Below are positions 1-56,676 of a DNA stretch of 64,000 bases, piece by piece. The notes under the pieces were generated by a model. That model was not told where the DNA came from. It ran no database searches and saw nothing but the letters and a program-made list of their open reading frames with translations. This DNA is from Euglena gracilis (Eukaryota). The translations under genes were made by a program, and so were the position numbers. The DNA lies in contig CP154954.1 in assembly GCA_039621445.1 (NCBI GenBank), positions 36,503,703 through 36,567,702 on the forward strand, in the 5' to 3' direction. How positions within the stretch are numbered: position 1 is the stretch's first letter; every line of letters begins with the position of its first letter.

Positions 1-250
1 CTACTTCGGCAGACGGGGGTTTTCCCTCGGTCCGCGGAGGTGCTAAACCGTCATTTTCAAAACGAAAAAAAGTCGATTTGCCCAGGAAAAAACCCCGGGA
101 TCGAAGGTGGTGGTACCCATTTTGGTACTAGTGGTTTCACTTGACGGGTCGGCCGCCCCGTCAAGTGGTGGCGACACACTTGGTCTCAAAAGAATGCGCA
201 GGTGCGCAAAAAACCACCAAAAGTGAAAAGTGCATTCCCGGCCGTCTAAG
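1..250. mobile_element. Right end of a second copy of the CTTAG-family element E1 (truncated by window edge)
   Basis: 1-250 is near-identical to 4292-4541, ends in the same TIR (GAAAAGTGCATTCCCGGCCGTCTAAG) and carries the E1 palindrome at ~192-210. Confidence 0.9.
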
Positions 251-310: not shown

Positions 311-39527
<39,217 letters not shown>

Positions 39528-40246
39528 TGTTTCCCCCTGAATACGAACCAGACACACCGACCCGTTTGGGTGCCCGTAGAAACAAACCTCATCCAGGGAC
39601 CTGTCCTCGAAAAAAGCACAAAAATGTACAAAAATATTCAAAAAAGTGCAAAAAATGCGCGGAAATGTGCATTTTTTGAAGAAAAAAAAAGTGTGCAAAA
39701 TTTTCAAACCCTGAGAGAAAGGCCCAAAAATCACGAAAATGCAATAATTGCCCCAAAAAAACATGTGAAAAATGGCACCAAATTTGCAAGAATTGTGAGC
39801 GAAATGTCTTCAAAAAATGCAAAAATGGTCAAAAATGCAAAAAAAAAATGGTTGAATCACAAAAAAAAATGCACCAAAAAGCAAAAAAAAACTAAAAAGA
39901 AAAGGAAAAATACACAAAAAATGAAAAAAAAACACCGCAAATGTGCATTATTATGAAAAAAACTCAAAAAAATGCAAACCTAATGCCAAACTTAGGCGGC
40001 GTAAATTGCCCATGGAAAAAATGACTGAAGTGTCACCCGGAACAGCAGAAAAATGCTCTAAAAAACAGCCAAACTTTTCGAGTTGCACATCAAGTCAAAA
40101 AATTTTGATGGTATTGACCACAGAACAGATGAATCGGAAAACCGCTTCGATGATTTATGAATTTTATTTTTAGCAGAAAACTATGGAAATACGAAGCAGC
40201 AAAATGTTGTAGAAAATTTACTATTATGGACAAACAACGAATGATA

Positions 40247-41183
40247 CAGGTTGCCAACACAAAAAAAATAACCCCCCTGACAGCACAAAAAACATACCCC
40301 CCCCCTTTTTTTTCAGTTTTTGTGGCAGCCATAACTTCGGCTGTGCACCATGTTGAGGTCTCGGACATACTCCATATTGTTGCCTGTGAAATACCCATCT
40401 AAAGATGTCTCTGTGCATTTTCCTCGATTCCCCCTCCACCCCGAGTTATGGGCCCCTCAAAAGTGCTCCGCACACGACAAGCGAAAATTTTGAAAACATG
40501 GATTTTGGGCCGGGTTGGAATAATAAACAGCTCACCACTCGGGAACCCTAAGGAGTTGGGCTCTGGAACTTGGTGGGTCGGATTGGCCATGAAATAGGCT
40601 TCAAAAAATATCTACATCAAAATTTGCCATCTCGACACCCAGAAAAAGTTATTTTATGGTTTTTGGGGCCAGCTGCAAAAAAATTTAGCCCTTTTGGTGT
40701 GGAAAAACCTAAAAAATGTGTGTTTCCCACACAAAAAGGGCTAAATTTTTTTGGAGCTGGCCCCAAAAACCATAAAATAACTTTTTCTGGGTGTCGAGAT
40801 GGCAAATTTTGATGTAGATATTTTTTGAAGCCTATTTCATGGCCAATCCGACCCACCAAGTTCCAGAGCCCAACTCCTTAGGGTTCCCGAGTGGTGAGCT
40901 GTTTATTATTCCAACCCGGCCCAAAATCCATGTTTTCAAAATTTTCGCTTGTCGTGTGCGGAGCACTTTTGAGGGGCCCATAACTCGGGGTGGAGGGGGA
41001 ATCGAGGAAAATGCACAGAGACATCTTTAGATGGGTATTTCACAGGCAACAATATGGAGTATGTCCGAGACCTCAACATGGTGCACAGCCGAAGTTATGG
41101 CTGCCACAAAAACTGAAAAAAAAATGGGGGGGGTATGTTTTTTGTGCTGTCAGGGGGGGTATGTTTTTTGTGTTGGCAACCTG
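40247..41183. mobile_element. 937-bp foldback element (near-perfect palindrome), TA-flanked
   Basis: TA|CAGGTTGCCAACAC ... GTGTTGGCAACCTG|TA; ~450-bp arms centred at ~40714; mirror-image ORFs 40399-40590(-) and 40839-41030(+) are identical. Confidence 0.93.
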
Positions 41184-41262
41184 TAACATCTGTCTGGCAC
41201 ACAGACAGATACATAATGTGAGCATATATATAGCAAATACCTGTGTACACCTAACGCAAAAA

Positions 41263-41678
41263 TAAACCCCCCCCCAAATATAAATCCCCCCCGGTTTTAT
41301 AATTGGGCGGAAATTTCAAGACCCCGAGGGGGGGTTTTATATTTGGGGGGGTTTTATATTCGGTCGGAAAAATCAACTTCCCGGTGGGCTCCAGTAGACA
41401 CTTTTTTGGTCCAAAATAACAAATACGCCCACCCTTGGGGGTCCAAAAACTTCATTTTTCGGGCGAAGGAGCAATTTTCACATGTTTTTGGTAAAAATTG
41501 TTCCCAGATCGGCCAAAATGACAATTTTGGGAGATATTTTGTCGGAAATTTTTCCTTCCGGCGCTTTGCGCCGGAGGGGGGGGGGTTATATTTGGGCGGG
41601 ATTTCAAGGTCCTCAGGGGGGGGGGTTTATATTTGGGGGGGGGTTGTATTTGGGGGGGTTATATTTGGGGGGGGGTTA
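41263..41678. mobile_element. MITE with AACCCCCCCCAAATATAA ends
   Basis: Inverted termini; repeated TTATATTTGGGGGG. Confidence 0.65.
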
Positions 41679-42825
41679 TAACAACAAAAATAAATTAAAA
41701 TACCCAATGAAGCGGAATACCACTTCATCGATACCCATAATCGTGATATTACATGAAGTGCAACTGAATCAGAACTAACAGGAATACAATTACATTTATG
41801 CTTTACAGGATAAAAAGGAGGAGAGACCACGTTCTGTCTTCGTGATTCACTCTACCTGACACGGACGTTGGCCATCGTCGGAGTCGGTTGTTTCTGTGGG
41901 CTGCTCTCATCTTTGCTGTTTTTTTCTTATATTTTTTTGCAATACCCCCCCTGCGCAAAGGTCGAGTGTAAAGCGTCTTCGTCCCTTGCCTGTGCCATTG
42001 CATGTTCCTTCTGGTTTGTTAATGCCCAGGCACCCGGCAGCCCCGTGGCTCCCCGCCTTGCACTGCTGGAGACAGAATGGTTCTAGGTCTAGACTGAATG
42101 TAGAACTAACATTTGAGGTTCGTGGTGTACTTGGCAGTTGGGCGGTTGCGTAGTGCGCGGGACAAATGCGTAGGTCCATGAAAAGTAGGTAATGAAGACA
42201 AAGCAAGCGGTTTTCCGCTTGCTTTGCAAGTATTTGACAAAACTTCATAAAAAGGGGAGAGGCTGGATCGGGTCCAATTCACTTCTCCGTACCCCTGAAC
42301 GGTGCCCAGCCGTCAGGGGTTTGGTTACGGCTTTTGCTGGACCGGGCTGGCGATCGCACAGTCCAGGCTCCCCATTCATCTCGGTACATAAACGTTACGT
42401 AGTGTACGATGAACCTTGTATTATGCACTTTGTGGTTCAGTCAAACGTTAAACGGTTAACAACATCACGTATCGAATTCCAATGCCGACAAAGCCAGACA
42501 GAATACAACGGCAGAATGAACAGGAGGCGGTTCCGCTTCCTTTTAATAAGGTGTCCAATATGCTTACTGTCACTCGCGAGCTGGATAACTGTTTACTGGT
42601 TGCATGTACCGTGAACAGAGCAACAATCGTAATGTTAGCATCTAAATGGAAGAATGCGGACACAGTGGTGGACCGAAGCCAAGATTGGTCCACCGCAACT
42701 TGTCGTGCACGTATCTCATCCTTTGGCACGACACTTGCGCTGAGTTCATCGAGTCCATGAGAAATCCTCTGCAAACATGACCTTGGCGGAGCTTTTACAC
42801 CCAAAGTTATGACGGAAGACAGTTT

Positions 42826-45492
42826 CTTAGGCGACCAACTCGCACTTAGCTTTGAAAGTGACTGTAAATTTGCGCCGACGCGCAAATCCAAAAAAAAGTT
42901 TGGTTTTCGAACACCGTGGCCTGAAACTGTCCTGCAGGACAGTCTGAAAATAGTGTCTCCCTGCACCCCAGGGCCTGGGGACGACAGCAACGACCTGGAA
43001 CTTCACGGTCTACGGGCACAGCACTCCCGAGTCCCAGTGTGCATGAACACACAGCGGCGGGCGATGAAACGAGGGGACTCCATTGCGCATTTGCGCTTTG
43101 GCACAAATTTTTTATTTCATTACAAAAAAACATTTGCGCTTTGGCGCAAATTTTTTGACTTTTTTGTAATTCAACATGTGGGTGACCATTGCCGCACTTG
43201 GGTAATGATAACAACTTTGTGTCAACATGTGTTTCCCTTGCGCCAAAGCGCAATGGGCAGGCTCATGAAATATGGGAATTTAAGAGTTACCTTGCGCCAA
43301 AGCGCAAATAGAAATACAATTTTTAAAATTGCAAAAGCAACATGGCTTGTGCCGAAGCGCAAACATAAATACTTGAAACTTATCTCACAACGGAGGGAGA
43401 GAACAGCCCAGGTAGAGTGTGAACACCAGAGGTGATAGAGCACAAAAATGAAGGACAGGGGGATGGAAGCCTACTCTCAGTCTCGTTGCCTTAAAATTGG
43501 TCAACATTGCGCGTCGGCGCAAGAGCCACGTTGCTTTGCGATTTTAAAAAGTGCATTTCTATTTCTATATAACTCTTAAATTTCTATTCTTCATAAGCCT
43601 ATCCATTGCCTGTGGAGCAAAAGCCATCAATTTTTAATTTCTCATGTTTATCACTGCGGGTGGAGAGAGCAGTCTTGGATCAATCTTATCACCAGAGCGA
43701 ACAGGGCTAAGGTGGAGGGAAGCCTTGCCTGGGACAGGAAGCCAACCCCCTGGTGTGTGAAAGCAACCACCAACTACTTGATATCCAGACGTGTCTTGTC
43801 CTGTGCGTTGTGAGCCCAACTGCCAGTGCCAGAGGTTCCTCCCACTTGCCTCGCACTTAAGCGTGCCTGAGGGGCCCTTCTTTTTGGCCGACTTTTGAAA
43901 ATCGGAAAATTTCTGTTTGGAAAAGAACAGGTACCCGATAAACCCTGGGAATCACAGCCGAGGAAACAGTTTTGGACGCTGAAAAAGTGTTTTAAAGAAG
44001 CTCGTCACCTCCTTTCCTCACCCAGGATTTGAAGCACACAACTTTGGGGATGAGCGAATGGAATTGAGAAATTGAAAGGGCCCATCAACAAAGGCGGAGA
44101 AGGGAAGACATGTTGACACACCTTTTTCGGTAATTTGCAACCCACCAGACAGCCACATGCCACCAGGCAGATGGAGGGCATTGTTCAGCCGAAAAAATCT
44201 TTCTATCAACATCCCCAAAAACCCCACTTTGTGCACTGAGTGCAAGGTCACTCAGGCTCCACAGCCTACCACCCACAATTCGTCTTATTGGAACAACCAC
44301 TCCCTCCCCAGCACCTGAATAGTTCAAAAGCACCAACCCAGCTTCTGGCACAGCAGTGCTCAAACCCTCCTCGTCATTCTCCTCTATCGCCCACCTTCTC
44401 ACACAGCACGAACGCATTCAAACGCATCTGCCATTTGAAAAGACATTTGTGTTTAAGCGCAAATTTTAAGCGCAAATTTTTAACTTGCGCTTAAGCGCAA
44501 ATAAAAAAATTTCCGCTTAAGCGCAAGTTAAAACAGAAGGCCCTCCGTTTATGGGAGCCCCTCTGATGTGTTACGGTGTGTTGGGGGCCCCTCTCTGAAT
44601 GGCCAGTGTGCGGGCTTGGTGAGGAAATGCATTGCGCCGAAGCGCAAACCATCATACAAAAAAAATGAGAAGTGCAAACACGCGGCTGACGTGTAATCTG
44701 AATGAACAAGCAGTGCACTATGTAGGCATGTCCCTTGCGCTTCGGCGCAATGCATTTCCTCACCAAGCCCGCACACTGGCCATTCAGGGAGGGGCCCCCG
44801 ACACACCGTAACACATCAGAGGGACTCCCATAAGCTCAGGGGCTTCTGTTTTAACTTTCGCTTAAACGCAAATTTTTTAATTTGCGCTTAAGCGCAAGTT
44901 AAAAATTTGCGCTGAAGCGCAAATGTCCATAACCATTGCCTTCTGTGCCCGGCAGTGTGGGGCCTGGGTTGCTCACTAGACGTTGGGACAGGTCCCTGGG
45001 CTTGCCCTCAGCACCCCTAAACCCCCCCCACCTGGGTGGTACCCGCTGTACCGCTCCTCACGCTTCAAGCACCCAGGGATCACAACTCTGTGACATGCCG
45101 TTTTTTTCAAACTTTTCACAACGCGTGTGTAGAGTCCACCCTCTGGATGCCTCAACAGGCAACCCTTCAGGCACACATCGCAGAGCCCAAAAAAAGCAAC
45201 AAAAAGGGCCACGTTACTCCCTGACTGTGTAGCACCATCCCGGGAACACTGTCAAAGCTTCCAAAACGAGGGACTCACAACGGGGGTTTTAACCCAGGGT
45301 TTTGCACCTTTTTCAAAATGGTGCACAGGCTGAAAAACACCAAAATTGGGCCTGTTCTTCAGGTCCCAACATCGGAAAATGATGCAAACGCCACCGTGGA
45401 GGGTTCTACCGCCAGGTCTCAAAGAAATCGAAAATTTGCGCGAAAGCGCAAGCTAAAAATCAAAACCTTAAGTGCGAGTTAGGCCGCCTAAG
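42826..45492. mobile_element. CTTAG-family element E3 nested in E2
   Basis: TIR CTTAGGCGACC-AACTCGCACTTA / TAAGTGCGAGTTAGGCCGCCTAAG; 5-bp TSD AGTTT (42821-42825, 45493-45497); at least 12 copies of TTGCGC-N4-GCGCAA. Confidence 0.9.
44442..44927. repeat. Internal ~200-bp inverted repeat of E3 with ~87-nt spacer
   Basis: 44442-44647 is the imperfect reverse complement of 44735-44927; both arms begin and end in TTGCGC-N4-GCGCAA sites. Confidence 0.9.
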
Positions 45493-46603
45493 AGTTTTAT
45501 ATTTCACACTAAATAAAATGAAGCGGAAAACCGCTTCACCTACGACTTGAATCGCGATGATGTTTGTTCATACCGAGTGATGTGACCACAAAATACTACA
45601 CAATCCGAACCACACGCATTTAGGTGGTTTAACTGAACGTCCTCTGTGGGCTGCCGCTGGCTAAGGCCAGCAAAAGCCGTAAATGGCGGGGACTGCCCAC
45701 CCCCTCCACATGCGGCCGGTGGTTCCCTACCGGTGTCAGCCCACTTTTTGCTTTTACGAGAGGGAGCGGGATTCCGCTTCATACGAAGCCGCACGTGTGG
45801 GTAGCGATTGTAATCACGCAGGCAGTCGGGTTCATCAGTGTGCATTGTACGCAGTTTGTTGGTCGATGTTTGCTTTCTGGTATACTGCTAAGTCACATTT
45901 GTATGCACAGCTAAAGGCAGATGGGAGGACAGTGTATATACCGAGATCAGGATACTCCATATGCCTGTGATGCTGATCACTTGGTTAGTCAGCAGGGCAG
46001 GGACTGTAATCACGGCAGGCAGTCAAGCAACTGTGAGTGGTGACAGTGATCACCCACGCGGTTGTACCAAAAAATAACACACATTAAATTCAAAATGACA
46101 TCACGAGTGAAGCGTTTTTCCGCTGACAATAAAAAACTATGAAAAAAATCCCAAAGTCCAGCCCTACGCTTTTGTATTGCGAAGGTTCTAACCGCAATAA
46201 ACTGGCAGTTGTGCCACCAACCACATCAATTCACTATAAATTCCCAGGTACTCATGTTTTGGGAAGGATTTCACCTGACATAGCGCTCCAGATGCGCCCA
46301 TTTTGAGAGACCAACGTCCTGTTGCACCCCCCCCCCGTTTCAAAATCCAAATACCCTTGCCAAACAGCACCAAAAATCAGCAATACCCACTGTATGAAGC
46401 GTAAAACTGCTTCATATATGAAACTATAAGCAATTTACTAACGCGTTCTTAGTTTTTAACGGAAAAAAAAAAAAACCCCCCCCCACCCCTTTTTCCCCCC
46501 CCCCCTGTTTTTTTTTTTGTTTCAAGAGATTACCAAGAGGAAGCGGTTATCAGCTTCCTTTTGTCACAATATATACGTATCTGGTCATTGGAACAGAAAA
46601 CAC

Positions 46604-49600
46604 ATGCCTGCTGTTGCATCGCCCGTGGAATTGGTCCTGAACATTCGGGGCCTTCGCGCCTATTTGCAACGTGGTGGGCCTCGTTCGGGATGGGACCTCT
46701 TTCACAATGCCTTCGTAGCTCGTGAGGTAGGTGCCCAAGCAATTGTGGCACTGTGCTGCATGGTGCGGCTGAATCGGCATTCGCGTCGCACAGTGGAAGC
46801 GGTGCGGGAGGCCTACCTGCGGCAGAGGGGGGGGGGGCAAAAACTGCACACGGGCAGGTCAAAAACCGCACTGCAAAAAAACTGCAAAAAAACTGCAAAA
46901 AACTGCACATCAACAAAAAAATAACAATAAACAAGCTGAAATGGTGTGCATATGCAAAACAACGTAAATTGTGACCACATGAGCACGCCCTAATTCACTT
47001 AACTTTTGCACAGCTTTGGAGCTGATGACAATAAAAATGAAAGCAATCAATCAAGGTACACTGTACATGGGTTTTCATGCACTGAAACACAAGTCATGTG
47101 TTTGGTTTGGATGCTGGTTCACACTGGTTTTCCTGCACCAAAGCTTGTGACGGCCATGCCCACGGAGCCAAACAGCTAAATATGGAAAAAATGCACATAC
47201 CCATATGCAGAAAGGTTCTATGCTTTTAATTCTCGCATGGGATGTTCAGTTTTGGAACTTTCGGTCCATCACCTGGTGAACTTCACCCATGTCACGATGC
47301 AAAAAAATCTACAAAACTAAAAAAAATACAACAACCATCACAAACTTTGAATACTGTCTTTAGGGGATTGCCAAATGGTCTGGGAATTTCTTGCAAATAA
47401 GAATGACTTCTTTGAAGCATTTGGCTTGTGTGATATTTGGCCAAAATGCTTGGGACAAGGCCCAATCTTCTACAGGAGCTCGTGCTCCTTTGCGTCTCCA
47501 CGAATCTCGCAAACTCCAACTTCAACCAAAATTTGCACAAAAAAACAGTTTTTTGGATTTAGTCCCCAAATCCCAAAATAATAAGTTGAATCTGCTCAGG
47601 AGTGCGCAAATGACGATTGCCAATATAAGCATCGTGACATCTGTCACCACATGCACAAGTTGGAGATGGAGCGATTTTGGTTGGGGAGAAATTGTGGCGT
47701 TGTCACCGAAACAATCTGTTTTTTGGAATGGTGGCTATAACAATTTATGTTGTGTCGAGAGGCAAGGCAGTTGGCAAACAGTTGGGGGCAAGACAACTGG
47801 TGGGATTACTGTAGACAACACAACTCATGAAGATATTTTTTGAGATATACTTTTTCTTGAGAAACACCCTTCAAACAATATAACCCAGCGTAACAAGGCG
47901 CAGAGCACCAAAAAATGAGCACCTCAGGTTTCCTCAAAACTGAAATCAAAAAAAAACTGCAAAAAACTGCACGTGTGCAGTTTTTTCAGGAAAAAAGCTG
48001 CAAAAAACTGCAAAAAACTGCAAAAAATGCAAAAAACCCAAAATGTGAAAACTGCAAAAAAAACTGCAAAAACTGCACGGTGCATATTTTGCCCCTCCCT
48101 GCCTGCGGTCTTCCTTCCACTGTCCACGGTGGCTGGGACAACTCGCCACTGGGGCTTATGCTGTGTGGCGTACGCTGCATCGACAGGCGCAGCCCTTCAC
48201 AGACCCCAGTGCAGTGGCCGAGAACACTCCCAGCATGCGGGCGCTGCAGCAGCTTCCGAGGGCTACACGGAGAACGCTGCGGCACACTGGCATGGTGGGT
48301 CGTACAGAGGTGCCGGTGGCAGCACGGGCAGCCGTGGCGGCGCGGGACATCCTGGCCTCCCTGCGGAACCACCAAATTGTCCTCTGGCTGGACAAATTCT
48401 GCTGGCTACGCTGGGGAACAGACCCGGCCACGCCGAACCTGAGCCAGAACCTCACAGCTTTTGGAACAGTGCAGGATACAAATCACACTGAAGAGTGCAT
48501 TGAAAACATTCCTATACGTGAATGATACACTGGTTAGATCCCGAGACAGCTAATAAATGGACTGCTTTCAGCAAATGCTGATGAAGCGGATAACCGCTTA
48601 CTCTTGCAAGAAATTGATTTTGATTGATCATCTCTGTTTCAATTGCAAGAGCTAAATCATTCCAAAGGGTCATAACATGCATAGTTTGCACTGATGACGC
48701 TTTCTACAGCTGGAGAACCTATTACACCGACCGGGAACGAGAACATGCTCTGTGACCTTCCCGGTGTCTCCAGGACATCCAGCACTGTGCGACCTGATTG
48801 GCAACCTGGAGGTGGTGGCGGCCTCCTGTTGTATGGGTTCGCTGCTGCTGCACCAAGCCGTGGGTCGCATACGACGGATGCAGCTGACGGAGACGACCAT
48901 CAGGGTGCCGCTGGATGTGGCGCGGACCGACATGCGGTCCCTGTAGTGGCGTCCGCTGTCGCTGACCGAGCAGGTGGTGTCAGCCAACCTCGACCTGCTG
49001 CTGGTGCTGTAGACGGCCAAGTCCCTGCAGCATCTGACTCGTCGCCAAAACACCTCTCTTGGTGGATGAGAACATCCACTACCGGTGTCTGCGGCTGCTG
49101 TACTCCGCGTCGGCGTCGCGGTACTACATGTCCCGCTACCTGGCCGAGGTCCCCCTGCTGTACGGCATCTGGCACGCGTACAAACACACGGTGACCATCG
49201 TGTACCGGGCGTTCTTCCCGGTGCTGGCCCACCTGGAGGTGTCCCCCAGTGACCACCACCTGACGTGCAGCCTGCGGAGCCACTGAAAGGTGCTGTACAC
49301 GGAGAAGCTGTTTGCCACCCTTCTGTTGTCCCGCGAGTCGGTCATGTCCCATGTCCCACTCTGACTCGCATATAATGCCAGTGAAGCGGTTTTCCGCTTG
49401 ATTGGCCCCATGAATGCAATTTAAGGATGTGTGCTGACATGCTATCTGTGATTCAGTAGTCAATTGACGACCAGAATGGAGGACTGGACCCTCTCTGGTG
49501 ATCAACAACAACAACTCCGGTCGCACCCATACCAGCTGCTGCAGGGGCTGTGGAACATCCTGGTGTCCTATGCCCCGGCCTTGCTGCACCTGGGACATGA

Positions 49601-50597
49601 GGTCCGAAAGTGTACCTGGAGGAGGAGACCTGAGGACAAGGTGAAAAGCACCACCGCTTGGCAGGTGCTGCAGAAGTGCCTGTTGCTGCTGATGCACCTG
49701 GAGAGCCTGATGAGTCCCGGAAGGCTGCCTTCGGAGTACCAGCGGTCCATCTCCCTGGCTCTGCCGGGGTGGCAGGACTGGATGTCACGGTTGCCCGGCT
49801 GCGTGTTCGTGGAGGAGGCTGGTGAGGCCATGCTGTCGAGGCTGTCCTCTGCCTGCAAGCGAAACCCCCACGTGACCAGCTTCGAGGGTACGCTGCAGCT
49901 GTTCCTGAACCTCGGCGCCCCCTCCGGTGAGGCTCACCACAGCCGTGGCAGCCTGCGGAAACAGCTGGTGCAGGAGATGGGACGTCGTGTGCGCGTCCTG
50001 GTGGGAAGCCCTGCCGACCGTCCATTTCCCAAGAGGGTGGACAACACAACCGTGCGGTGGCTGGTGGACCCGGAGACCTACCCCACCTGGATGGCGCCAG
50101 ACCCCACCGCTGAGCAGCTGCTGCCTGTCCTCCGACACTCCCTGCAGACGCTGGTCAGAGGACAGCGCCTCGCGGAAGACGTGGTAGAGTGGCTCAGGAG
50201 CAACGTGAGCTGTGTGGATTCGGATCTTCTGCATGAAAGAGAAGAGGCCATGTCCCCGTTCTTGGCACGCAGAAGAAGCAGAGCTGACACAGCTGAACAT
50301 CCTCCTCGGCATCCAGATGAAGCGGAAAACCGCTTCCACGACACCGATGAAGCGGAGAACCGCTTCGACGATAACACAGCTGAGATGGAGGTGGCAGGGG
50401 CCTCGGTCGGGGTGGGTGGCATGGAGGAAGGTAGCAGCTTGTACGAGCCACCGGAGTCCCTCTACGCGCCGCCCGGTGACTTATCGGACGGCTACGTGTC
50501 CGTGGGGGCCTCCGATGGATTGGACTGGCTGGCATCACTGCAAAGCAGTGATATTTCCAACGCTTCGTCGGATGTCTCCGTGGCAGTGGTGTGTTAA
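46604..50597 (+). pseudogene. Decayed DDE (RNase H-fold) transposase-like gene with spliceosomal introns
   Basis: Segments 46604-46822 + 48109-~48468 (in frame once the 46823-48101 insertion and one TSD are removed), 48710-49340, and ~49470-50597. Motifs IVLWLDKF (D ~48391), WRPLSL, LVDENIHYR, PLLYGIWHAYK, FVEEAGEAMLSRL. Lesions: TAG 48944, TAG 49010, frameshift ~49050, TGA 49284. The family assignment comes from motif resemblance only. Confidence 0.65.
46823..48101. mobile_element. TIR element with 7-bp TSD inserted in the transposase exon
   Basis: CAGAGGG...GGCAAAAACTGCAC / GTGCATATTTTGCCCCTCCCTG; TSD CCTGCGG (46816-46822, 48102-48108); (ACTGCAAAAAA)n subterminal repeats; same design as 25380-25891. 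Confidence 0.88.
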
Positions 50598-50954
50598 TCC
50601 CTTCTGATTGCTCTGCGTCGGGAATATCAGTTGTATTACAGTATTTGGGACACGTTGGGTTCACATGCTGGTGAACTACCACCTAATACATAGGCAAATA
50701 GCAGCATCCCGGACAAAGACTCAAACAGATAGCAAGAAAACGGCTGCTTTTTTAAAGATGGTGCTGTTTGGTTCGGGTGGAGAGCGAAAAGCAGGGACTG
50801 TTTTGCAAACAGAAAGCAAAATTAAAATAAATGCACAATTTCAGTTTGTTCTACATCTTCTTTTTGGAAATAAATGATGCAAATCTATTCATTTCAGCCT
50901 CATTTTCCACAGATTGGAGGATTGTGTACATATTTTTCCATTGTTTCCCCACAG

Positions 50955-53486
50955 ACCAGTGCGCACGGCTCCGAAAAGGCTGGCGAAGGCAGACACCACG
51001 GGACAGTCGATCCCGAAGCTGCTGGAAGACGAGGAGATGTGGCTGCAGAGGGAACAGGGTTAGATTTGGTGCTGCTTTTGCTGAATGCATGGATTGAAAC
51101 GGTATGTCTGGGTACATTACCCACATTGGAAAGACGTCAGTTGACATTCGGCACTGAGGATGGCTGTTTGAGATGCAATGTCAGACAAAAATGTGTTCTA
51201 TGCACTAATGAAGTGGAAACACGCTTCATTCCTTTGAAATGGGTTTTTCCTTCTATAAAGAAAGATAACAAATGTAACCCTGCAGCCGGGCAGCTGGTCC
51301 TGGACGTTGACCTGAGCCGCGGGCAGGTCCGTCGGCCCCGACAGGAGCACGTGAACAACCTCATCACCGAGCTGCAGAACAACCCACCGCAGGAGCTGGT
51401 GCTGACGGTGTGGCCGGACAGAGGTGTCCACCAGCCCCCTTGATATCCGTTTGTCATATGCATGAGGATGAATCCGCTTCAATTCAAAATGTGTGTTTCC
51501 CAGAAGCGATATGGCATACATATAGTGATGTTATGTTTACTTCACAGTTTGGAAATATTTCCTATTTTCCTTGAGGCAATGTTCAGCAATGAATGGTACG
51601 TTTGTGTCCCTCTTTTCACAGCTACGGGGAAGTGGGTCATGCTGAGTGGTCAACATCGTTTCCTGGCTGCGTCGGCCATCGCCAACGTCTGGCGGCCTCC
51701 AGCCTTCACAGAGAAATTCTGGTGCAAGGTGGTGAAGGAGAACACCCCCATCAAGGAGCGCCAGCAGCTGGCCGGCAGACTGCAGGCCATGGATGGCAAC
51801 GTCATGGACATGACCCTGGTGGACCGCCTGCAGTGGCTCCTGAAGGAGGACACCAGCAGGGAGAATGCCGAGGTGGATGGGGTTCCCTACAACCCGACCA
51901 AGACGGAGCTGTTGAAAACCGTCTACAGCAAGACGGGATGCCGGGAGACGGTGGACGGCGCCCTGGTGTGTTCTGTGAATGAGATCTTCGTTTGCTAAAC
52001 ATAACACACAATGAAAGGGGGATGACATGTCACATTCAACGTTTAATATGCTTTTTTGATTGTTTGCTAAATGAGTGGTTGCAATAGGAAGTGTTTTCCT
52101 GCTTCATTAACTTTCTCTGTGTATTTTAACCATCTCAGGGGACCTGGGTGAAAGCCATGATCCCGGTGACGGAGTGGGTGCTGCAGAGTGGGACTGAGGC
52201 CGTGGAGGTGGTAAAGAGGATGGAGGCCCGAGGTGGGGACCGTGTGTCCCCACACACGTTCAAATGCCTGGAGGCCATCCACCATCCGGACGACTACGCG
52301 GAGCTGGCCCAGGTGATGTTGGACGAGAAGGCCAAGCCCACCACCCAGCGGTTGGTCCAGGCTTCACAGTTTGGTTAAACAGTTTTGGTTAAAAATGGGT
52401 AGTCTGCACACTCTGGAATTAAAAGGAAATTTTCAATTATGATGCAAGAAACGTGTTTCCGCTTCATGTACACATTTTCAAATTAACATGGTACTTTCTT
52501 CCTTTTTCCCTATAAACTGAAATGGGGTCTGCTGCCAGGCAGGCGACAGCCAAGCTGGTGCGCCGGAGGACCTGGACGTGGCTGCTGCAGCACCCGGAGC
52601 TGGATGCCGACGTTCTTCACCCATCAAGAAGTATGTACTGTTTTGTTTTATGGAAACTTAATGCACGACTGTCTGAGATGAGTTGACTTACCCTTTCTGG
52701 ATAACCGGTTTTCAGGACCACGTGGATGAGGCCGGTCTTCTGCACCTCAGACTGGGCGACCCGCTTGGCCGAGGCCCGGCCTGGCGTGGAGATCTCCTGG
52801 GTGCTGGGCACCTCTTCCTCCGGCCGCTTGGGCTTCCCTGGCGTTGACGGACCACGGCCAGCCAGGGTCATCCCGTGCAGGTCCAGGGTGCCGAAGATGC
52901 CCCCGACCTTGACGGCGGGCTCCATCACCAGGCCCAGCAGCCGCTGCCTCAGGCCCTCGTCCAAGCAGGGCGGCCAGGACCCGAAGGAGTCCAAGTCCAA
53001 GGAGACCAAAGAGTCCCAGGACAAGCCCAAGGAGAAGGAGTCCAAGGACAAGCCCGACAAGAAGACCAAAGTCACGCCCAAGAAGGGCGCTCGGGGGAAG
53101 CAGTTCCGCCTCCTCGCAGCCTACCCGGCACTCCTACGAGTCGTCCTCGGAACCGCCTGGGTGCCCGACACACAGGGAGAGGCCCAATGGTGCATTTGCT
53201 ATAATGTCTCTTTCATTATGTCATGTTTCAGGTTACCAATAATTTAATATTTATCTCAGATGAAGCGTTTTTCCGCTTCCTCAAAAAACAATCTCAATAA
53301 TTCTTCCACTATTTGATGCGCGTTCCCATTCTGCTGTAAATTGTTTGCATCAACGTTCAAAACAAAGACATCTCGTCGAAACTACGGTTATCTGTGTGTT
53401 ATGTCTCCGGTCTGCGCCGCTCCTTGATGCCGAGGAAGCGGTCCGCCCTGGAGAACATCCACGAGATGGTGGTGGACGACGAGTGA
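50955..53486 (+). CDS. Multi-exon ParB/Sulfiredoxin-fold (DGQHR/ParB-N-like) protein with Lys/Glu-rich C-terminal region; 3' half probably frameshifted
   Basis: Exons ~50955-51058, 51286-51423, 51622-51965, 52139-52360, 52543-52630, 52717-~53170, ~53410-53486. Phase-compatible GT-AG splicing gives LDVDLSRGQVRRPRQEHVNNLITELQNNPPQELVLTVWPDRATGKWVMLSGQHRFLAASAI, which matches the ParB-N layout (..xR...L...I...P.V....G...GxxRxxA). The junction at 52630/52717 is out of phase. Confidence 0.65.
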
Positions 53487-56334
53487 GCGGGCGGCTGTAG
53501 CGGCCGCGGTGGCAGCGGGCGGCTGGTGCCGCCGGCGAGGGAGGGACAAGCGAGACCAGACCCAGACCAGACCCAGACCAAGACCCAGAACCGGTCCTCA
53601 ACTGTTCACACAGCTTCGCACACCGCACACGCCCATTTCGCCGTGTCTTCCATTTGTGTTTGTCTTTGACATGGCTGTGGAACATGGGGCTTTGGGGGGT
53701 TGTCAGATCTGTCACCTTTGTGTAAGAAATGGGATGATAACTCCACAAAGTGCTCAGTTTATGCCTCAGCTTTGGGATACAATACAGCTTTTCAATAATG
53801 TTCGATGAGGTATTTATGTTTGTTGGGTATTTCATGTTTGGGGTTATGCTGATACACTCCCCATTCAGATGGTTCAGTGTTGTTCGCACTCAAATGGACT
53901 CAGTTTGGGAGCCTGATCTGCATAAAATTTCTGCACTCCAGCTTGAGGAAGCGGAAAACCGCTTCTTCGGTTTTCTGTTTGTTTTCACAGGTTTTCCCTC
54001 CCTGCCCACTCCTTATGGCTGAGTACCTGAAGCGCGGACACATATAACACAGGTCTGTATTGTTCCTTGTCTTGGATTTGCATTCCATTTATGGTGTTTG
54101 TAAAATGTGGACCATGCCTGTTAAACTGATGACAATTGTTCACTGCTGATTACATTTGATTCATTATACCCTTTTGAAATGATGAACAATGGTATGTCTG
54201 GAATGATTGCTGACTGCCTGATTTTGAAGCGGAATGTCATTTTTACCGCTTCATGTTTTTCTCCTTTCTGTTTTTTCACCCTTTGCAGGGGGTTTCGAGT
54301 TCTTCCGGCAGCGGCGGCATCGAATATCAGGTGTGAATCTGCTCATTCTGTGTGGGTTTGTAATTTTTGTACGGTTTTTGTTCGTTTGCACATGATTTGA
54401 AAAAAAAACTGTAGTTTCGGGTCTGTTTTGGAGTTTATAGGACTCCGTTAGTGCAAGCCAAACGTCCACCAGAAATGGCCGAAATCGGGACCCCTTCCAG
54501 AAACCTCAAAAAAAATGGGCCTTTTTTGGAAGCGGGTTTCCGCTTCCTTTTCCGTTTCGGACGGGTCAGAAATTTTGGGCAATTTACGTCTCCTAAGCCA
54601 AACGCTTCGCCCCCCTCTCCTTATCCAAGGTTTACTTCCTTTCAGCCATTTTCTTAGGAAATTGATGGGTTGTGCACATCAATCGTGTCAGTCCTTTTTG
54701 ACTTGCTCTTTCCTCTTTGACCCAAACTTGGGGGCAAAAATGGAGCCACCATAAACCCACGCCCAAAGGTCTTGGGTAGCTGGCATATGTTCAATTAAAC
54801 GTCTTCAAAAGGCACAACAACAGCACATTGACTAATTTTCAGAGCCAATTCATCAGCCCCCCCCCCCCATTTATAACCCCCCTTGGGCCAGCCAACCAAA
54901 GCACTACTTAACACCTTGGGAAAGAAAAACGAAAACGGTCACAGAGAGTTTGTTTGCCCTCAAACCCCCCAAATGTGAAATCAAAATATTTTTCACAGTT
55001 TTAATGTCCCGGCCGTCATAAAATATTTTACCAAATGTGCCAGAATGGGTGATTTGGGGCATTCTGGGTCATTTTGGGGAGTTTCCAACAATTCCTTGAT
55101 TTACACCGTCCTACTTATAACCCCCTCCCCTTCGGCTGACCAACCAAAACACAAACCCCCCGAAATTTAAAAGTGTGGGGATTTAATAGTTTGAACAATG
55201 TCTGAATTCATGGAAAAGACGACTCTGGAAAGTCATTGCATTGGTGGTGTTGGGGATCCGACCGGGCCACTGTGCCAAAGCCACCAACCCCAAGTGTGCC
55301 GAGACACAGGGTCCGATTTAGCGTCTTCCTGTCTGTCTCGCAGTGGGCCTGAATACCGGTGGGTCGGGTATCGGTTACAGTCTGGTTGGTAGGTGGGGGG
55401 GGATGGTCACCCCCCAACATATCCAGGAGGTGGGGAAGATGGATCCCAGGTGTCGCTGAAGCCGAAGGGCCTCCCCCACCAAGGGGGGAGCAGCCAGCCA
55501 GCAGCCTGTTTCTAGTCCTGGACCTCCCTCCCCCATCGACAAATTTCATTTCCAGTCCAGCCCCCCTTTGTGCGGCTGGACAGTGCTTTAGATGGCTGGA
55601 CGGATTTATTTTTGCTCTGGAGGTGCAACGATGGGCCAACGCTGGGCAAAAATGGGTCGGAAATGGGTTGCCCAGCTCAAAGTTGGGGTCGTAAATCGAT
55701 TTTTTGCATAGTTGCCAAGCATTTTTTGCAGTTTCAATTTTTGCCATATGGTTCGACCCCCAGTCGCTTCCACTTCTAGCCACACCCCTACTGAGCTATT
55801 GGGGAGGGCAACCAAGGGCCTTGTGGGGAGGGGAGTTGGCACCGGGCCGGGGGGGGGGGGGTCGCGGGGAAACACCCCCTGAACAGAGTACACAGAGAGT
55901 GGTTGTACCTGGCAAAAGACCGATCATCCATGTGAAGATAATATGCTGTTTTTTGGGGGGGGACTGAGAATGATGGATTCTAATTTCAAAAGACGTTTTC
56001 TTGAACAAAAACGTACAGCAGAGCCAGGGATTGAACCCGGAGCTCCCAGTGGCTGCATGGGCCGCATGTTTTGCACATATTTCAACCATGACATCTCTGA
56101 ACTGGACAGGGGTAACTGATCTGGCTGCACATCACTGGTTGTGGGATCTGACCAACCTCCTGATGGGAGGGGAACACCACCTCTGATCCCCAGGGTATGC
56201 CACCCCTGGTGCTGGGAGGTGTCTGTACCCCCACCCCCCCCCTTTTTTAGAGGTTCTGAAAATAGCAATAAGCATGTTTTGGGATGTTCTGGTGTTTTCC
56301 ATACAAAAAAAACATGGTGAAACTTCAATAAATG

Positions 56335-56676
56335 AGCATTTGTTGTGTGCACGAGCAAAGGGCCAGAAACCAAGGCAAATTGGTTGGAAAATCTGTGATT
56401 TTCTTTTTGGAGTTATTTCCAAAAAGAAAATCACAGATTTTCCAACCATTTTGCCTTGGTTTCTGGCCCTTTGCTCGTGCACACAACCAGAAACTTTCCC
56501 GGCCCAGCATTTGTTGTGTGCACGAGCAAAGGGCCAGAAACCAAGGCAAATTGGTTGGAAAATCTGTGATTTTCTTTTTGGAGTTATTTCCAAAAAGAAA
56601 ATCACAGATTTTCCAACCATTTTGCCTTGGTTTCTGGCCCTTTGCTCGTGCACACAACCAGAAACTTTCCCGGCCC
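56335..56676. repeat. Two tandem 171-bp units, each a ~146-bp hairpin
   Basis: Units start at 56335 and 56506; arms GTTGTGTGCACGAGCAAAGGGCC...TTTTTGGA / TCCAAAAAG...GCTCGTGCACACAAC. Confidence 0.93.

Follow-up and report, generated by a model that had tools for sequence, protein, structure and literature searches.

The window analysed here is a stretch of 64,000 nucleotides of Euglena gracilis DNA (assembly GCA_039621445.1, contig CP154954.1, positions 36,503,703 to 36,567,702 of the forward strand), and all positions below are counted from its first letter. At 39991-54597 lies a large element with terminal inverted repeats (TIRs), which we name F1; it carries two spliced genes on the + strand, a presumed transposase (gene A) and a gene whose product resembles the bacterial ParB and DndB proteins (gene B), and a short palindrome scattered from one end to the other. 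An earlier note, made from the sequence alone, had described the locus as a DNA transposon in which a ParB-fold gene is paired with some 20 copies of a private palindrome. Two gene-less relatives in the same window, F2 (nested in F1) and F3 (separate from it), have the same termini and palindromes of the same design with other arms, and in their light what looked like one gene with its partner sites is better read as a cis feature belonging to an entire transposon superfamily.

The F1 transposon and its palindromes

F1 is bounded and interrupted by the following features (a strand is given where there is one).

39986..39990: left copy of the target site duplication (TSD), CCAAA
39991..40012, + strand: left TIR of F1, CTTAGGCGGCGTAAATTGCCCA, agreeing with the right end at 20/22 bases
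40241..41189: foldback insertion nested in F1, with 410-nt arms that are 99% complementary and with no palindrome sites
46823..48101: nested TIR element of 1,279 bp that splits the coding sequence of gene A, flanked by CCTGCGG at 46816-46822 and 48102-48108
54576..54597, - strand: right TIR of F1, CTTAGGAGACGTAAATTGCCCA as read on that strand
54598..54602: right copy of the TSD, CCAAA

The termini of F1 read CTTAGG...GTAAATTGCCCA, and both ends follow CTTAGG(C/A)G(G/A)CGTAAATTGCCCA; the agreement of the 22-nt ends, with the 5-bp TSD on either side, is that of a class II TIR element. In DNA run X1 the summed contig depth is 12,000-79,000 over F1's own body (70-132 for individual listed contigs) and 358,000-637,000 over the nested insertions; such depth is not copy number. 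F1 is multi-copy, and its nested passengers are far more so. The same run contains a deletion derivative whose joint, 42185->54528 (depth 2,869, 2 contigs), adjoins two palindromes lying in the same orientation. The ends, the multiple copies and the derivative together bear out the claim of a DNA transposon with TIRs and a 5-bp TSD. We take F1 to be an old copy, now disabled, of a cut-and-paste transposon that was once autonomous and whose kind is unclassified, and we define its superfamily here by CTTAG(G/A)CG(G/A)C termini and 5-bp TSDs.

The F1 palindrome is TGAAGCGG-N4-CCGCTTCA, 18-20 bp long, with TGAAGCGGNNNNCCGCTTCA as its 20-mer form. Sites were scored by mismatches out of the 16 specified bases, and the following were found.

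40130..40149: site with 2 mismatches; left subterminal, 140 bp from the end
41708..41727: site with 1 mismatch, in the left arm of the element
42203..42222: site with 4 outer-base mismatches, 8/8 arm pairs complementary; left side of the X1 deletion joint
42523..42540: degenerate site with a 2-nt spacer, GGAGGCGG-TT-CCGCTTCC
45519..45538: exact site, upstream of gene A
45762..45781: site with 2 mismatches, upstream of gene A
46108..46127: site with 4 mismatches, upstream of gene A
46395..46414: site with 2 mismatches, upstream of gene A
46539..46558: site with 3 mismatches, some 50 bp before the start codon of gene A
48582..48601: site with 2 mismatches, midway along gene A intron 48469-48709
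49382..49401: site with 1 mismatch, in the gene A intron at about 49351-49459
50318..50337: site with 1 mismatch in gene A coding sequence, reading DEAENRF, in a linker without counterpart in distant homologues
50348..50367: site with 1 mismatch, a second in-frame DEAENRF in the same gene A linker
51209..51228: site with 2 mismatches in the 5' part of gene B, probably intron (the model there has no homologue backing)
51463..51481: degenerate site, only the right half CCGCTTCA, exact; gene B intron 51424-51621
52087..52106: site with 4 mismatches, gene B intron 51966-52138
52447..52466: site with 3 mismatches, gene B intron 52355-52542
53261..53280: site with 2 mismatches, 3' part of gene B (provisional model)
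53947..53966: site with 2 mismatches, in the right arm of the element
54225..54253: split site, exact TGAAGCGG and CCGCTTCA 13 nt apart; 54225 also scores at 5 mismatches, a non-specific level
54528..54547: site with 2 mismatches; right subterminal, ending 51 bp from the end; right side of the X1 deletion joint

Of the 21 positions reported earlier, 18 are thus sites at four or fewer mismatches, and the other three are degenerate, one having a 2-nt spacer, one only its right half and one its halves 13 nt apart. For counting, four nested insertions (5,309 bp) were separated from F1's own body of 9,298 bp, the rest of the window making up 49,393 bp. The claim that the palindrome is confined to F1 and avoids the nested insertions holds within the 64-kb window: at <=2 mismatches there are 13 sites in the own body and none in either the nested insertions or the flanks; at <=3 mismatches the counts are 15, 0 and 2, and at <=4 they are 18, 0 and 2, specificity being lost at <=5 mismatches (22 in the own body, 19 outside). 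Scored in other ways, the 20-mer occurs exactly once in the window and 17 times at <=3 mismatches (15 of them inside 39991-54597), against 0.38 expected and with 0/100 shuffles reaching 17, and all 12 window matches to GAAGCGG-N4-CCGCTTC at <=1 mismatch fall in the own body of F1.

The sites occur about once per 500 bp over the 9.3-kb body. Coding sequence holds 2/18 of them, and at least four of the five homologue-supported introns contain one. The spacer is A/T-rich and found in both loop orientations, including in the untranscribed flanks. Likeness among the sites spans only about 20 nt, and they are therefore not copies of a longer repeat. At position 40134 nearly all other copies in X1 (depth 103,788 of 104,249) read G, which restores the canonical arm, so that the sites are better conserved in the F1 family than in the present copy. 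An introner-like origin of the sites in introns was considered and dropped, on the ground of this short span of likeness and of the intron before the GQH motif of gene B, which is apparently shared with distant relatives.

Could the sites belong to the host instead, as binding sites of a host factor or as a by-product of repeat evolution, their link to gene B being coincidental? The confinement just described is a result for these 64 kb, and the window does contain other hairpin-rich repeats, at 28353-30550 and 56335-56676. Against this stand the complete absence of sites at <=2 mismatches from the flanks (49.4 kb) and the nested DNA (5.3 kb), compared with 13 in 9.3 kb; the canonical base that other copies keep at 40134, where F1 has drifted; and the fact that each of the three families has arms of its own. 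We regard a host origin as scarcely credible. Public collections contain the exact 18-mer in at least 118 metagenome stretches and the 20-mer in 5 bacterial genomes, a single time in each; these carriers have no similarity to F1 or its proteins, and we take the matches to be chance.

The passengers of F1 are themselves repetitive. The arms of the foldback insertion lie 16 nt apart and are enclosed by 73-nt outer inverted repeats. The element at 46823-48101 has ends CAGAGGGG...GCAAAA, repeats of AAAAAACTGC inside both ends and a 7-bp TSD, CCTGCGG; it is present at very high copy in X1 and has more RNA reads than any other part of the stretch (depth up to 8). Repeats of 15-17 bp with G-runs and TTATATTT, arranged in inverted blocks, fill 41265-41685, where the X1 depth of 533,860 is among the highest in the stretch; this is probably a further nested repeat.

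Gene-less relatives with shared termini

The window holds two further elements, and part of a third, that share the termini of F1.

1..250: second F3 copy, right end, cut by the start of the window, with a subterminal palindrome at 194
1184..4541: F3, a separate gene-less element of 3.36 kb with TIR arms CTTAGACGGCCGGGAATGCACTTTTC and TSD AGAGG
42826..45492: F2, a gene-less element nested in F1, with ends CTTAGGCG(A/G)CC...AACTCGCACTTA on both sides and TSD AGTTT

F1, F2 and F3 have CTTAG-CGGC termini and 5-bp TSDs (CCAAA, AGTTT and AGAGG, respectively) in common; the TIR arms of F3 are identical over 26 nt, and its 31-nt arms are 94% complementary. The F2 palindrome is TTGCGC-N4-GCGCAA, which at <=1 mismatch has 18 matches in the window against 0.24 expected, 14 of them in F2 and 3 of them cross matches in F3 copies, as the F2 and F3 patterns differ by one base per arm. 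The F3 palindrome, ATGCGC-N4-GCGCAT, has 12 matches at the same threshold against 0.09 expected, 11 in F3 and the twelfth in the partial copy. All three families thus use one design, with arms of 6-8 bp around a GCG core and a 4-nt spacer, and the outermost sites lie close to the ends: 44 and 41 bp inside in F2, 62 and 41 bp in F3, and 140 and 51 bp in F1.

F2 is present at very high copy in X1, and RNA reads of other F2 copies show the same terminus behind different flanks. By tblastn neither F2 nor F3 has similarity to gene A or gene B (best E 0.02 or worse). Since F2 is gene-less and yet very high in copy, its sites would be kept by selection for being moved, and not for gene expression. 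A palindrome of one design but with its own arms in each family, beside termini that the families share, points to family-specific cis sites of a transposon superfamily; judged from these sequences, that is what the palindromes are, with the arms as the family-specific part.

These families also bear on whether the palindromes act as nucleic-acid structures, either as DNA hairpins or cruciforms in repair and replication or as hairpins in pre-mRNA, with effects on splicing, small RNA or gap repair. The exact F1 site does fold as a DNA hairpin (-9.5 kcal/mol, z -7.3); sites recur in the supported introns, as noted above; and the X1 joint beside two sites in the same orientation suggests microhomology in gap repair. 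A structural role would, however, tolerate any arms, whereas the three families keep different arms in the same architecture; the sites lie in either orientation, and some, among them those of the two subterminal regions, are outside what is transcribed; and a stem of 7-8 bp is short for cruciform extrusion in chromatin. We consider such a role improbable.

The two genes of F1

Gene A was modelled by mapping full-length homologues onto the window, as follows.

46604..46822, + strand: first 73 codons of gene A from the ATG, free of stops, aligning with residues 1-75 of P0106-P0108
48109..48468, + strand: first exon, continued, with the invariant WxDNW block
48710..49350, + strand: middle exon (3' boundary approximate), with the VDENIHY and GIWHAYKH blocks
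49460..50597, + strand: last exon (5' boundary approximate), with the LPGCVFVEE block and the stop TAA at 50595

Gene A codes for a protein of about 755 residues, and its family has seven members (P0103-P0109): four full-length homologues of 754-811 residues, from metagenome contigs, are apparently intron-less, and three others are about as long as the open reading frame (ORF) at 49452-50594, to which they are related. In F1 the introns lie at 48469-48709 and at about 49351-49459. The WxDNW, VDENIHY and VFVEE blocks are strongly conserved among the homologues, and the acidic residues D160, D306/E307 and E511/E512 are invariant in all four full-length ones. Gene A is dead in F1, being split by the 1,279-bp insertion and further broken, in its middle exon, by three in-frame stops (TAG 48944, TAG 49010 and TGA 49284) and a frameshift between 49045 and 49053. 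The acidic linker that contains two palindrome sites has no counterpart in P0104 and P0105; the 86%-identical P0103 has DEAENRL and DEADTRF there. After a variable linker, at about 50440-50500, the window and all seven relatives have a C-terminal acidic/aromatic motif, SLYEPP(E/G)S..S(D/E)GY(V/I)S, which may be a docking motif.

We were unable to assign gene A to a known family. Three of the four full-length homologues have no Pfam family and the fourth has a sub-threshold chance match, and gene A matches none of the known transposase superfamilies with Pfam models (hAT, MULE, EnSpm/Plavaka, KDZ, PIF, piggyBac, Tc1/mariner, P, Transib/RAG1-like and others), this comparison being one of superfamilies that have such models and thus not of Sola, Zator, Novosib, Dada, Academ, Kolobok and others. 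NCBIfam gave no match; a PDB sequence search with a 9-row profile gave only NSUN4, at E 0.02; the best ESM Atlas score, 0.84, provided no lead; and a scan of viral contigs with the gene A alignment produced 22 pattern matches, of which 0 were confirmed. The AlphaFold2 model of the full-length protein has a mean predicted local distance difference test (pLDDT) score of 39, and fold searches with it found no match, the N-terminal domain included; the N-terminal 90 or so residues of the homologues are predicted as a helical domain at pLDDT 67-89. A Transib relationship, suggested by the 5-bp TSD, was dropped: the PDB sequence search listed neither Transib nor RAG1, and termini of the F1 type are, we take it, unlike the heptamer of Transib and of recombination signal sequences.

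No Pfam family above cut-off was found among 53 F1 ORFs, and no candidate transposase gene besides gene A was found in F1. Gene A is presumed, from this context, to be the F1 transposase, and its family may constitute a transposase superfamily without a Pfam model. The "transposase-like" gene of the earlier note is a real conserved gene, as its homologues attest; its presumed standing as a transposase comes only from its place in the element.

Gene B lies downstream on the same strand.

51286..51423, + strand: exon with the first half of the ParB/Srx-like domain (LVLDVDLSRGQVRR...NPPQELVLTVWPDR)
51622..51965, + strand: exon with the second half of the domain, beginning GKWVMLSGQHRFLAA
52139..52354, + strand: exon aligning with P0005, P0040 and P0034
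52543..52630, + strand: exon
52631..53486, + strand: 3' part of gene B, provisional, with Lys-rich 27-bp repeats at 52983-53064 and a possible last exon running to a TGA near 53486; a reading of the sequence only

The four exons have AG/GT boundaries and when joined give 261 open codons. The SGQHRFLAA motif, which had been reported in a spliced gene, is indeed there, at the start of the second of these exons on the + strand. Searched against 1.84 billion representative proteins, that exon has 84 matches at E<=0.001. Six long proteins with multi-stretch matches were set aside (of three looked up, two were named, both bacterial immunoglobulin-like proteins); the remaining relatives are short ORFs on short metagenome contigs. 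In most relatives the ORF starts just before the GQH motif, from which we read the intron at this point as apparently occupying a position that the relatives share; P0027, P0045 and P0054 read through it and so reveal the upstream half of the domain. At the other end of the exon nearly all relatives that read on continue V-C after DGxx, which we take to be read-through of a conserved GTGTG-type splice donor and not protein.

For profile comparison by hhalign we used a 69-row alignment of the gene B family whose master row is the spliced product from the window (15/84 matches were left out, six long and nine short or odd), and reference alignments of 19 ParB_N, 23 DGQHR and 26 GmrSD_N sequences from bacterial genomes. 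Gene B scored 39.7 with DGQHR (E 1.7e-5, 62 columns, probability 78%), 29.0 with GmrSD_N (E 6.4e-4, 47 columns) and 28.4 with ParB_N (E 5e-4, 100 columns), and in all three comparisons box I (GQVR to QPR), a helix, a strand and box II (SGQHR) follow in the expected order. On the same scale ParB_N and DGQHR score 20.4 with each other, and DGQHR and GmrSD_N 51.2; column shuffles reach at most 18.4 (ParB_N) and 14.5 (DGQHR), reversed ParB_N reaches 11.3, and unrelated families score 13-18 (A1 15.3; A6 13.2-17.9). With moderate confidence, then, these profiles place gene B in the ParB/Srx superfamily, nearest to its DGQHR/DndB branch. Box II is SGQHR in the window and, in the 41 or more relatives that cover the motif, [S/D/A/H]GQH[R/K/Q/E/T]; the arginines with which ParB contacts cytidine triphosphate (CTP) are accordingly not kept, and gene B is not a canonical ParB. 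That it acts as a CTP-dependent sliding clamp is a conjecture.

Language-model features put the gene B family at 0.94 beside the DUF3723 and ParB_N clusters (164/256 features shared, guide value 170), which is a lead only. A PDB sequence search gave nothing meaningful, and Pfam revealed no enzyme domain in the resolved parts. Residues 20-110 of P0027, used as a query for more N-terminal halves, recovered only the query itself; a tblastn search of phage records with P0027 gave two chance matches at E 5; and scans with the gene B alignment produced 53 pattern matches in metagenomes, 41 in genomes and 85 in viral contigs, of which 0 were confirmed.

Reading of the palindromes

We favour an explanation with two layers of recognition, in which the conserved termini would be cut by the transposase, presumably gene A, and the palindromes would be read separately, as symmetric double-stranded sites for a dimeric element-encoded protein acting in cis in mobilisation. 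The preferred reader is the gene B protein, which as an accessory factor would mark and gather the DNA of the element and so let the transposase pair two distant ends. One site lies a short way in from each end, and introns, untranslated stretches and one dispensable coding linker hold many others. The analysis shows how F1 is built, that each palindrome keeps to its own family, where gene B belongs among the superfamilies and that gene A has decayed; we infer that protein binds the sites, that the binder is the product of gene B and that gene A encodes the transposase. To this explanation as a whole, with gene B as reader, we give roughly even chances.

Besides the one palindrome design in three families, the sites kept by gene-less F2, the scarcity of sites in coding sequence, the canonical base of other copies at 40134 and the profile scores of gene B, several considerations speak for it: i) the outermost sites, 41-62 bp inside the ends with the exception of the F1 left site, sit where end-binding sites of TIR transposons are found; ii) the occurrence of sites in both orientations and in untranscribed flanks fits a symmetric site in double-stranded DNA; iii) the supported exons of gene B are open while gene A is broken; and iv) gene B is favoured as the reader because termini and palindromes evolve independently, and because the sites run through the whole body instead of clustering at the ends. 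ParB-type proteins bind palindromes of this kind and bridge DNA, which we also count in favour of gene B. A further reason to favour it is the analogous proposal made for algal Plavaka elements, as set out in the PAG3 passages of the preprint (bioRxiv 10.1101/2025.02.11.637652).

We wish to stress what weighs on the other side. Gene B and the palindromes are linked only by proximity within one element, F2 and F3 have palindromes without gene B (whose presence in cis is thus not required for the sites), and no presumed autonomous partner of F2 or F3 was seen in the 64-kb window. Gene A is without a known family, fold or demonstrated catalytic triad, and its predicted N-terminal helical domain could equally be the reader. 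Mean RNA depth is <=0.33 in all bins of 48338-55000, which cover both genes (three runs with the same species label, about 5-6% of their letters read), and no RNA record was among the listed holders of the stretch. As to the ancestry of gene B, the fourth residue of its box II is R, K, Q, E or T, depending on the relative, unlike that of ParB CTPases; Pfam, including PF02195 and PF12520 (the DUF3723 model that had been put forward for comparison), has no match at E<=1 for eight proteins of the family, three of them with the whole domain, nor has NCBIfam, including TIGR03187, for seven; the hhalign probabilities are only 28-78%; and shuffles of ParB_N in 10-column blocks that keep the motifs reach 30, and hence one or two motifs supply much of the signal. 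Only 4 sequences enter the N-terminal half of the profile, and in the AlphaFold2 model of P0027 (72 rows) the N-terminal 110 residues, informed by four sequences, have pLDDT 31-64, the C-terminal part being confident; with that half at low pLDDT, Foldseek and VIA-align brought up no ParB structure among the matches listed for the P0027 model. Of the proposed ParB/Srx identity, membership in the superfamily is thus supported by the profile scores and their controls; the matches listed for the three-dimensional models include no ParB, and the CTP-contacting arginines are not kept.

The chief rival to gene B is gene A itself, which may bind the palindromes through its N-terminal helical domain, much as the transposases of hAT, P and Mutator elements use subterminal sites; gene B would then do something else, for instance regulate in a nucleoside triphosphate-dependent manner, act as a nuclease or protect against silencing by the host. 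A site 41-62 bp inside nearly every end of three families is in the classic place for transposase binding, the helical domain is confidently predicted, and gene-less F2 and F3 need only be recognised by a transposase in order to move. Bacterial domains of the DGQHR/GmrSD type are, moreover, tied to the sensing of DNA modification and not to site-specific segregation. The abstract of PMC4619093 likewise points to modification sensing. Transposase sites, on the other hand, normally lie in the terminal few hundred bp, whereas here they are spread over the whole 9.3-kb body and most of the supported introns; the termini are common to the families while the palindromes differ, which two readers fit better than one; and fold searches gave the N-terminal domain no identity. 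We hold this rival to be possible, though doubtful.

A stronger form of the gene B explanation would make the protein a eukaryotic, transposon-borne descendant of the nucleotide-dependent ParB/DGQHR clamps, which would load at its private palindromes, spread or bridge, compact an element of 10-15 kb so that its ends synapse, and tell its own element from co-resident families; the arms of each family would then be an address code co-evolving with its own gene B. We consider this specific form unlikely.

Known systems offer partial parallels. Bacterial ParB-parS and Noc-NBS are CTP-dependent clamps loaded at palindromes of 14-16 bp. Gene B resembles them in its ParB/Srx-type N-terminal domain, with Q-x-R in box I and with a helix that opens with box II, and in the scattered palindromes of similar length; it differs in box II (GQH[R/K/Q/E/T] versus GERRxR), in the absence of a ParA-like ORF among the 53 F1 ORFs scanned against Pfam, and in leaving the Pfam ParB_N model unmatched. 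DndB/DGQHR (TIGR03187) gives the best profile match and GmrSD_N/DUF262 (PF03235) another (39.7 and 29.0), with the same register of box I, helix, strand and DGQ(H/Q)R and with the G-Q-H core kept; gene B, however, is spliced, lacks a partner nuclease domain, belongs to a transposon where these genes belong to defence or modification islands, and leaves these models unmatched at E<=1. En/Spm (CACTA) elements encode TnpA, which binds 12-bp subterminal repeats. There too are two components, with termini cut by the transposase, family motifs in both orientations, a second protein that joins the ends, and non-autonomous relatives that keep the motifs; TnpA, in contrast, has no relation to ParB and its motifs keep to the terminal 200-300 bp, and these elements have CACTA termini and a 3-bp TSD.

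Eukaryotic mobile elements with comparable accessory genes have been described. In the giant Plavaka (CACTA-like) transposons of Bostrychia moritziana, PAG3 combines an N-terminal ParB-like domain with a 2-oxoglutarate-dependent oxygenase, and the passages of the preprint concerning it propose adjacent tandem inverted repeats as binding sites and a protein acting on its own element (bioRxiv 10.1101/2025.02.11.637652). As presented there, PAG3 shares with gene B a eukaryotic DNA transposon, a ParB-like accessory protein and repeats within the element as proposed sites; it differs in its oxygenase fusion and in tandem arrays by the gene, where F1 has single palindromes from end to end, introns included. 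Gene A matches no Plavaka/EnSpm Pfam model, and the likeness of gene B to PAG3 is one of description only. Sola1-1_Ec32 of Ectocarpus carries, on the strand opposite to its Sola1 transposase, an accessory gene for a 1,104-aa fusion of a ParB-like domain and a DNA methyltransferase, which according to the authors' account of the element may bind and modify it (PMC12477816). It is likewise a large TIR transposon with a ParB-like DNA-binding accessory gene; its published description, in the portions on this gene, gives no cognate sites, whereas gene B is stand-alone, on the same strand as gene A, and accompanied by about 20 candidate sites. Fungal Starship elements carry DUF3723 accessory genes without an assigned function (PMC9156397). 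They too are eukaryotic mobile elements with a conserved accessory gene, and the language-model lead points to DUF3723; Starships are nevertheless far larger and use a tyrosine recombinase, and PF12520 is unmatched by the relatives of gene B.

The statement in the earlier note that no such system had been described must accordingly be withdrawn, ParB-like accessories being in print in the parts of the two accounts bearing on them (bioRxiv 10.1101/2025.02.11.637652; PMC12477816); a ParB-like accessory acting on repeats of its own transposon was raised for algal giant transposons in 2025. We found no description, in open-access papers and preprints, of a stand-alone DGQHR-type gene with private palindromes throughout its element. 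The present case differs in the family-less presumed transposase, the stand-alone ParB/DGQHR-like protein, the single palindromes from end to end, and sister families with different palindromes side by side; the gain is a cleaner, testable case and not a new principle.

Were the favoured explanation true, some eukaryotic DNA transposons would combine conserved termini for cutting with a family-specific palindrome array read by a second, ParB/DndB-related protein, which would explain both how ends are paired in elements of at least 10 kb and how related families coexist without cross-mobilising one another. Were the clamp form true, mobile DNA in eukaryotes would have built self-recognition from parts of bacterial segregation and defence systems, joined to an undescribed transposase superfamily. 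Three families in one window with the same termini and different palindromes make a ready system for swapping specificity, and the gene A and gene B families, so far almost only on metagenome contigs, gain a context.

Elsewhere in the window, Rfam at gathering score found nothing, and 34 ORFs of at least 220 codons outside F1 have no Pfam match at E<=0.001; long open frames in this G+C-rich window are mostly not genes. An open frame of 490 codons at 4583-6055 (- strand), also without a Pfam match, crosses simple sequence; a TAA-rich microsatellite with a 9-bp period occupies 5564-5992 and is followed by tandem repeats of about 205 bp at 6035-6950. Tandem repeats of 43 bp around a CCTCGAA...TTCGAGG hairpin lie at 28353-28624 and 30389-30550, and the single ARAGORN call, a tRNA-Ser at 30444-30536, falls within them and is probably an artefact. 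At 56335-56676 are two identical tandem units of 171 bp, each a hairpin with arms of 70 nt that are 99% complementary.

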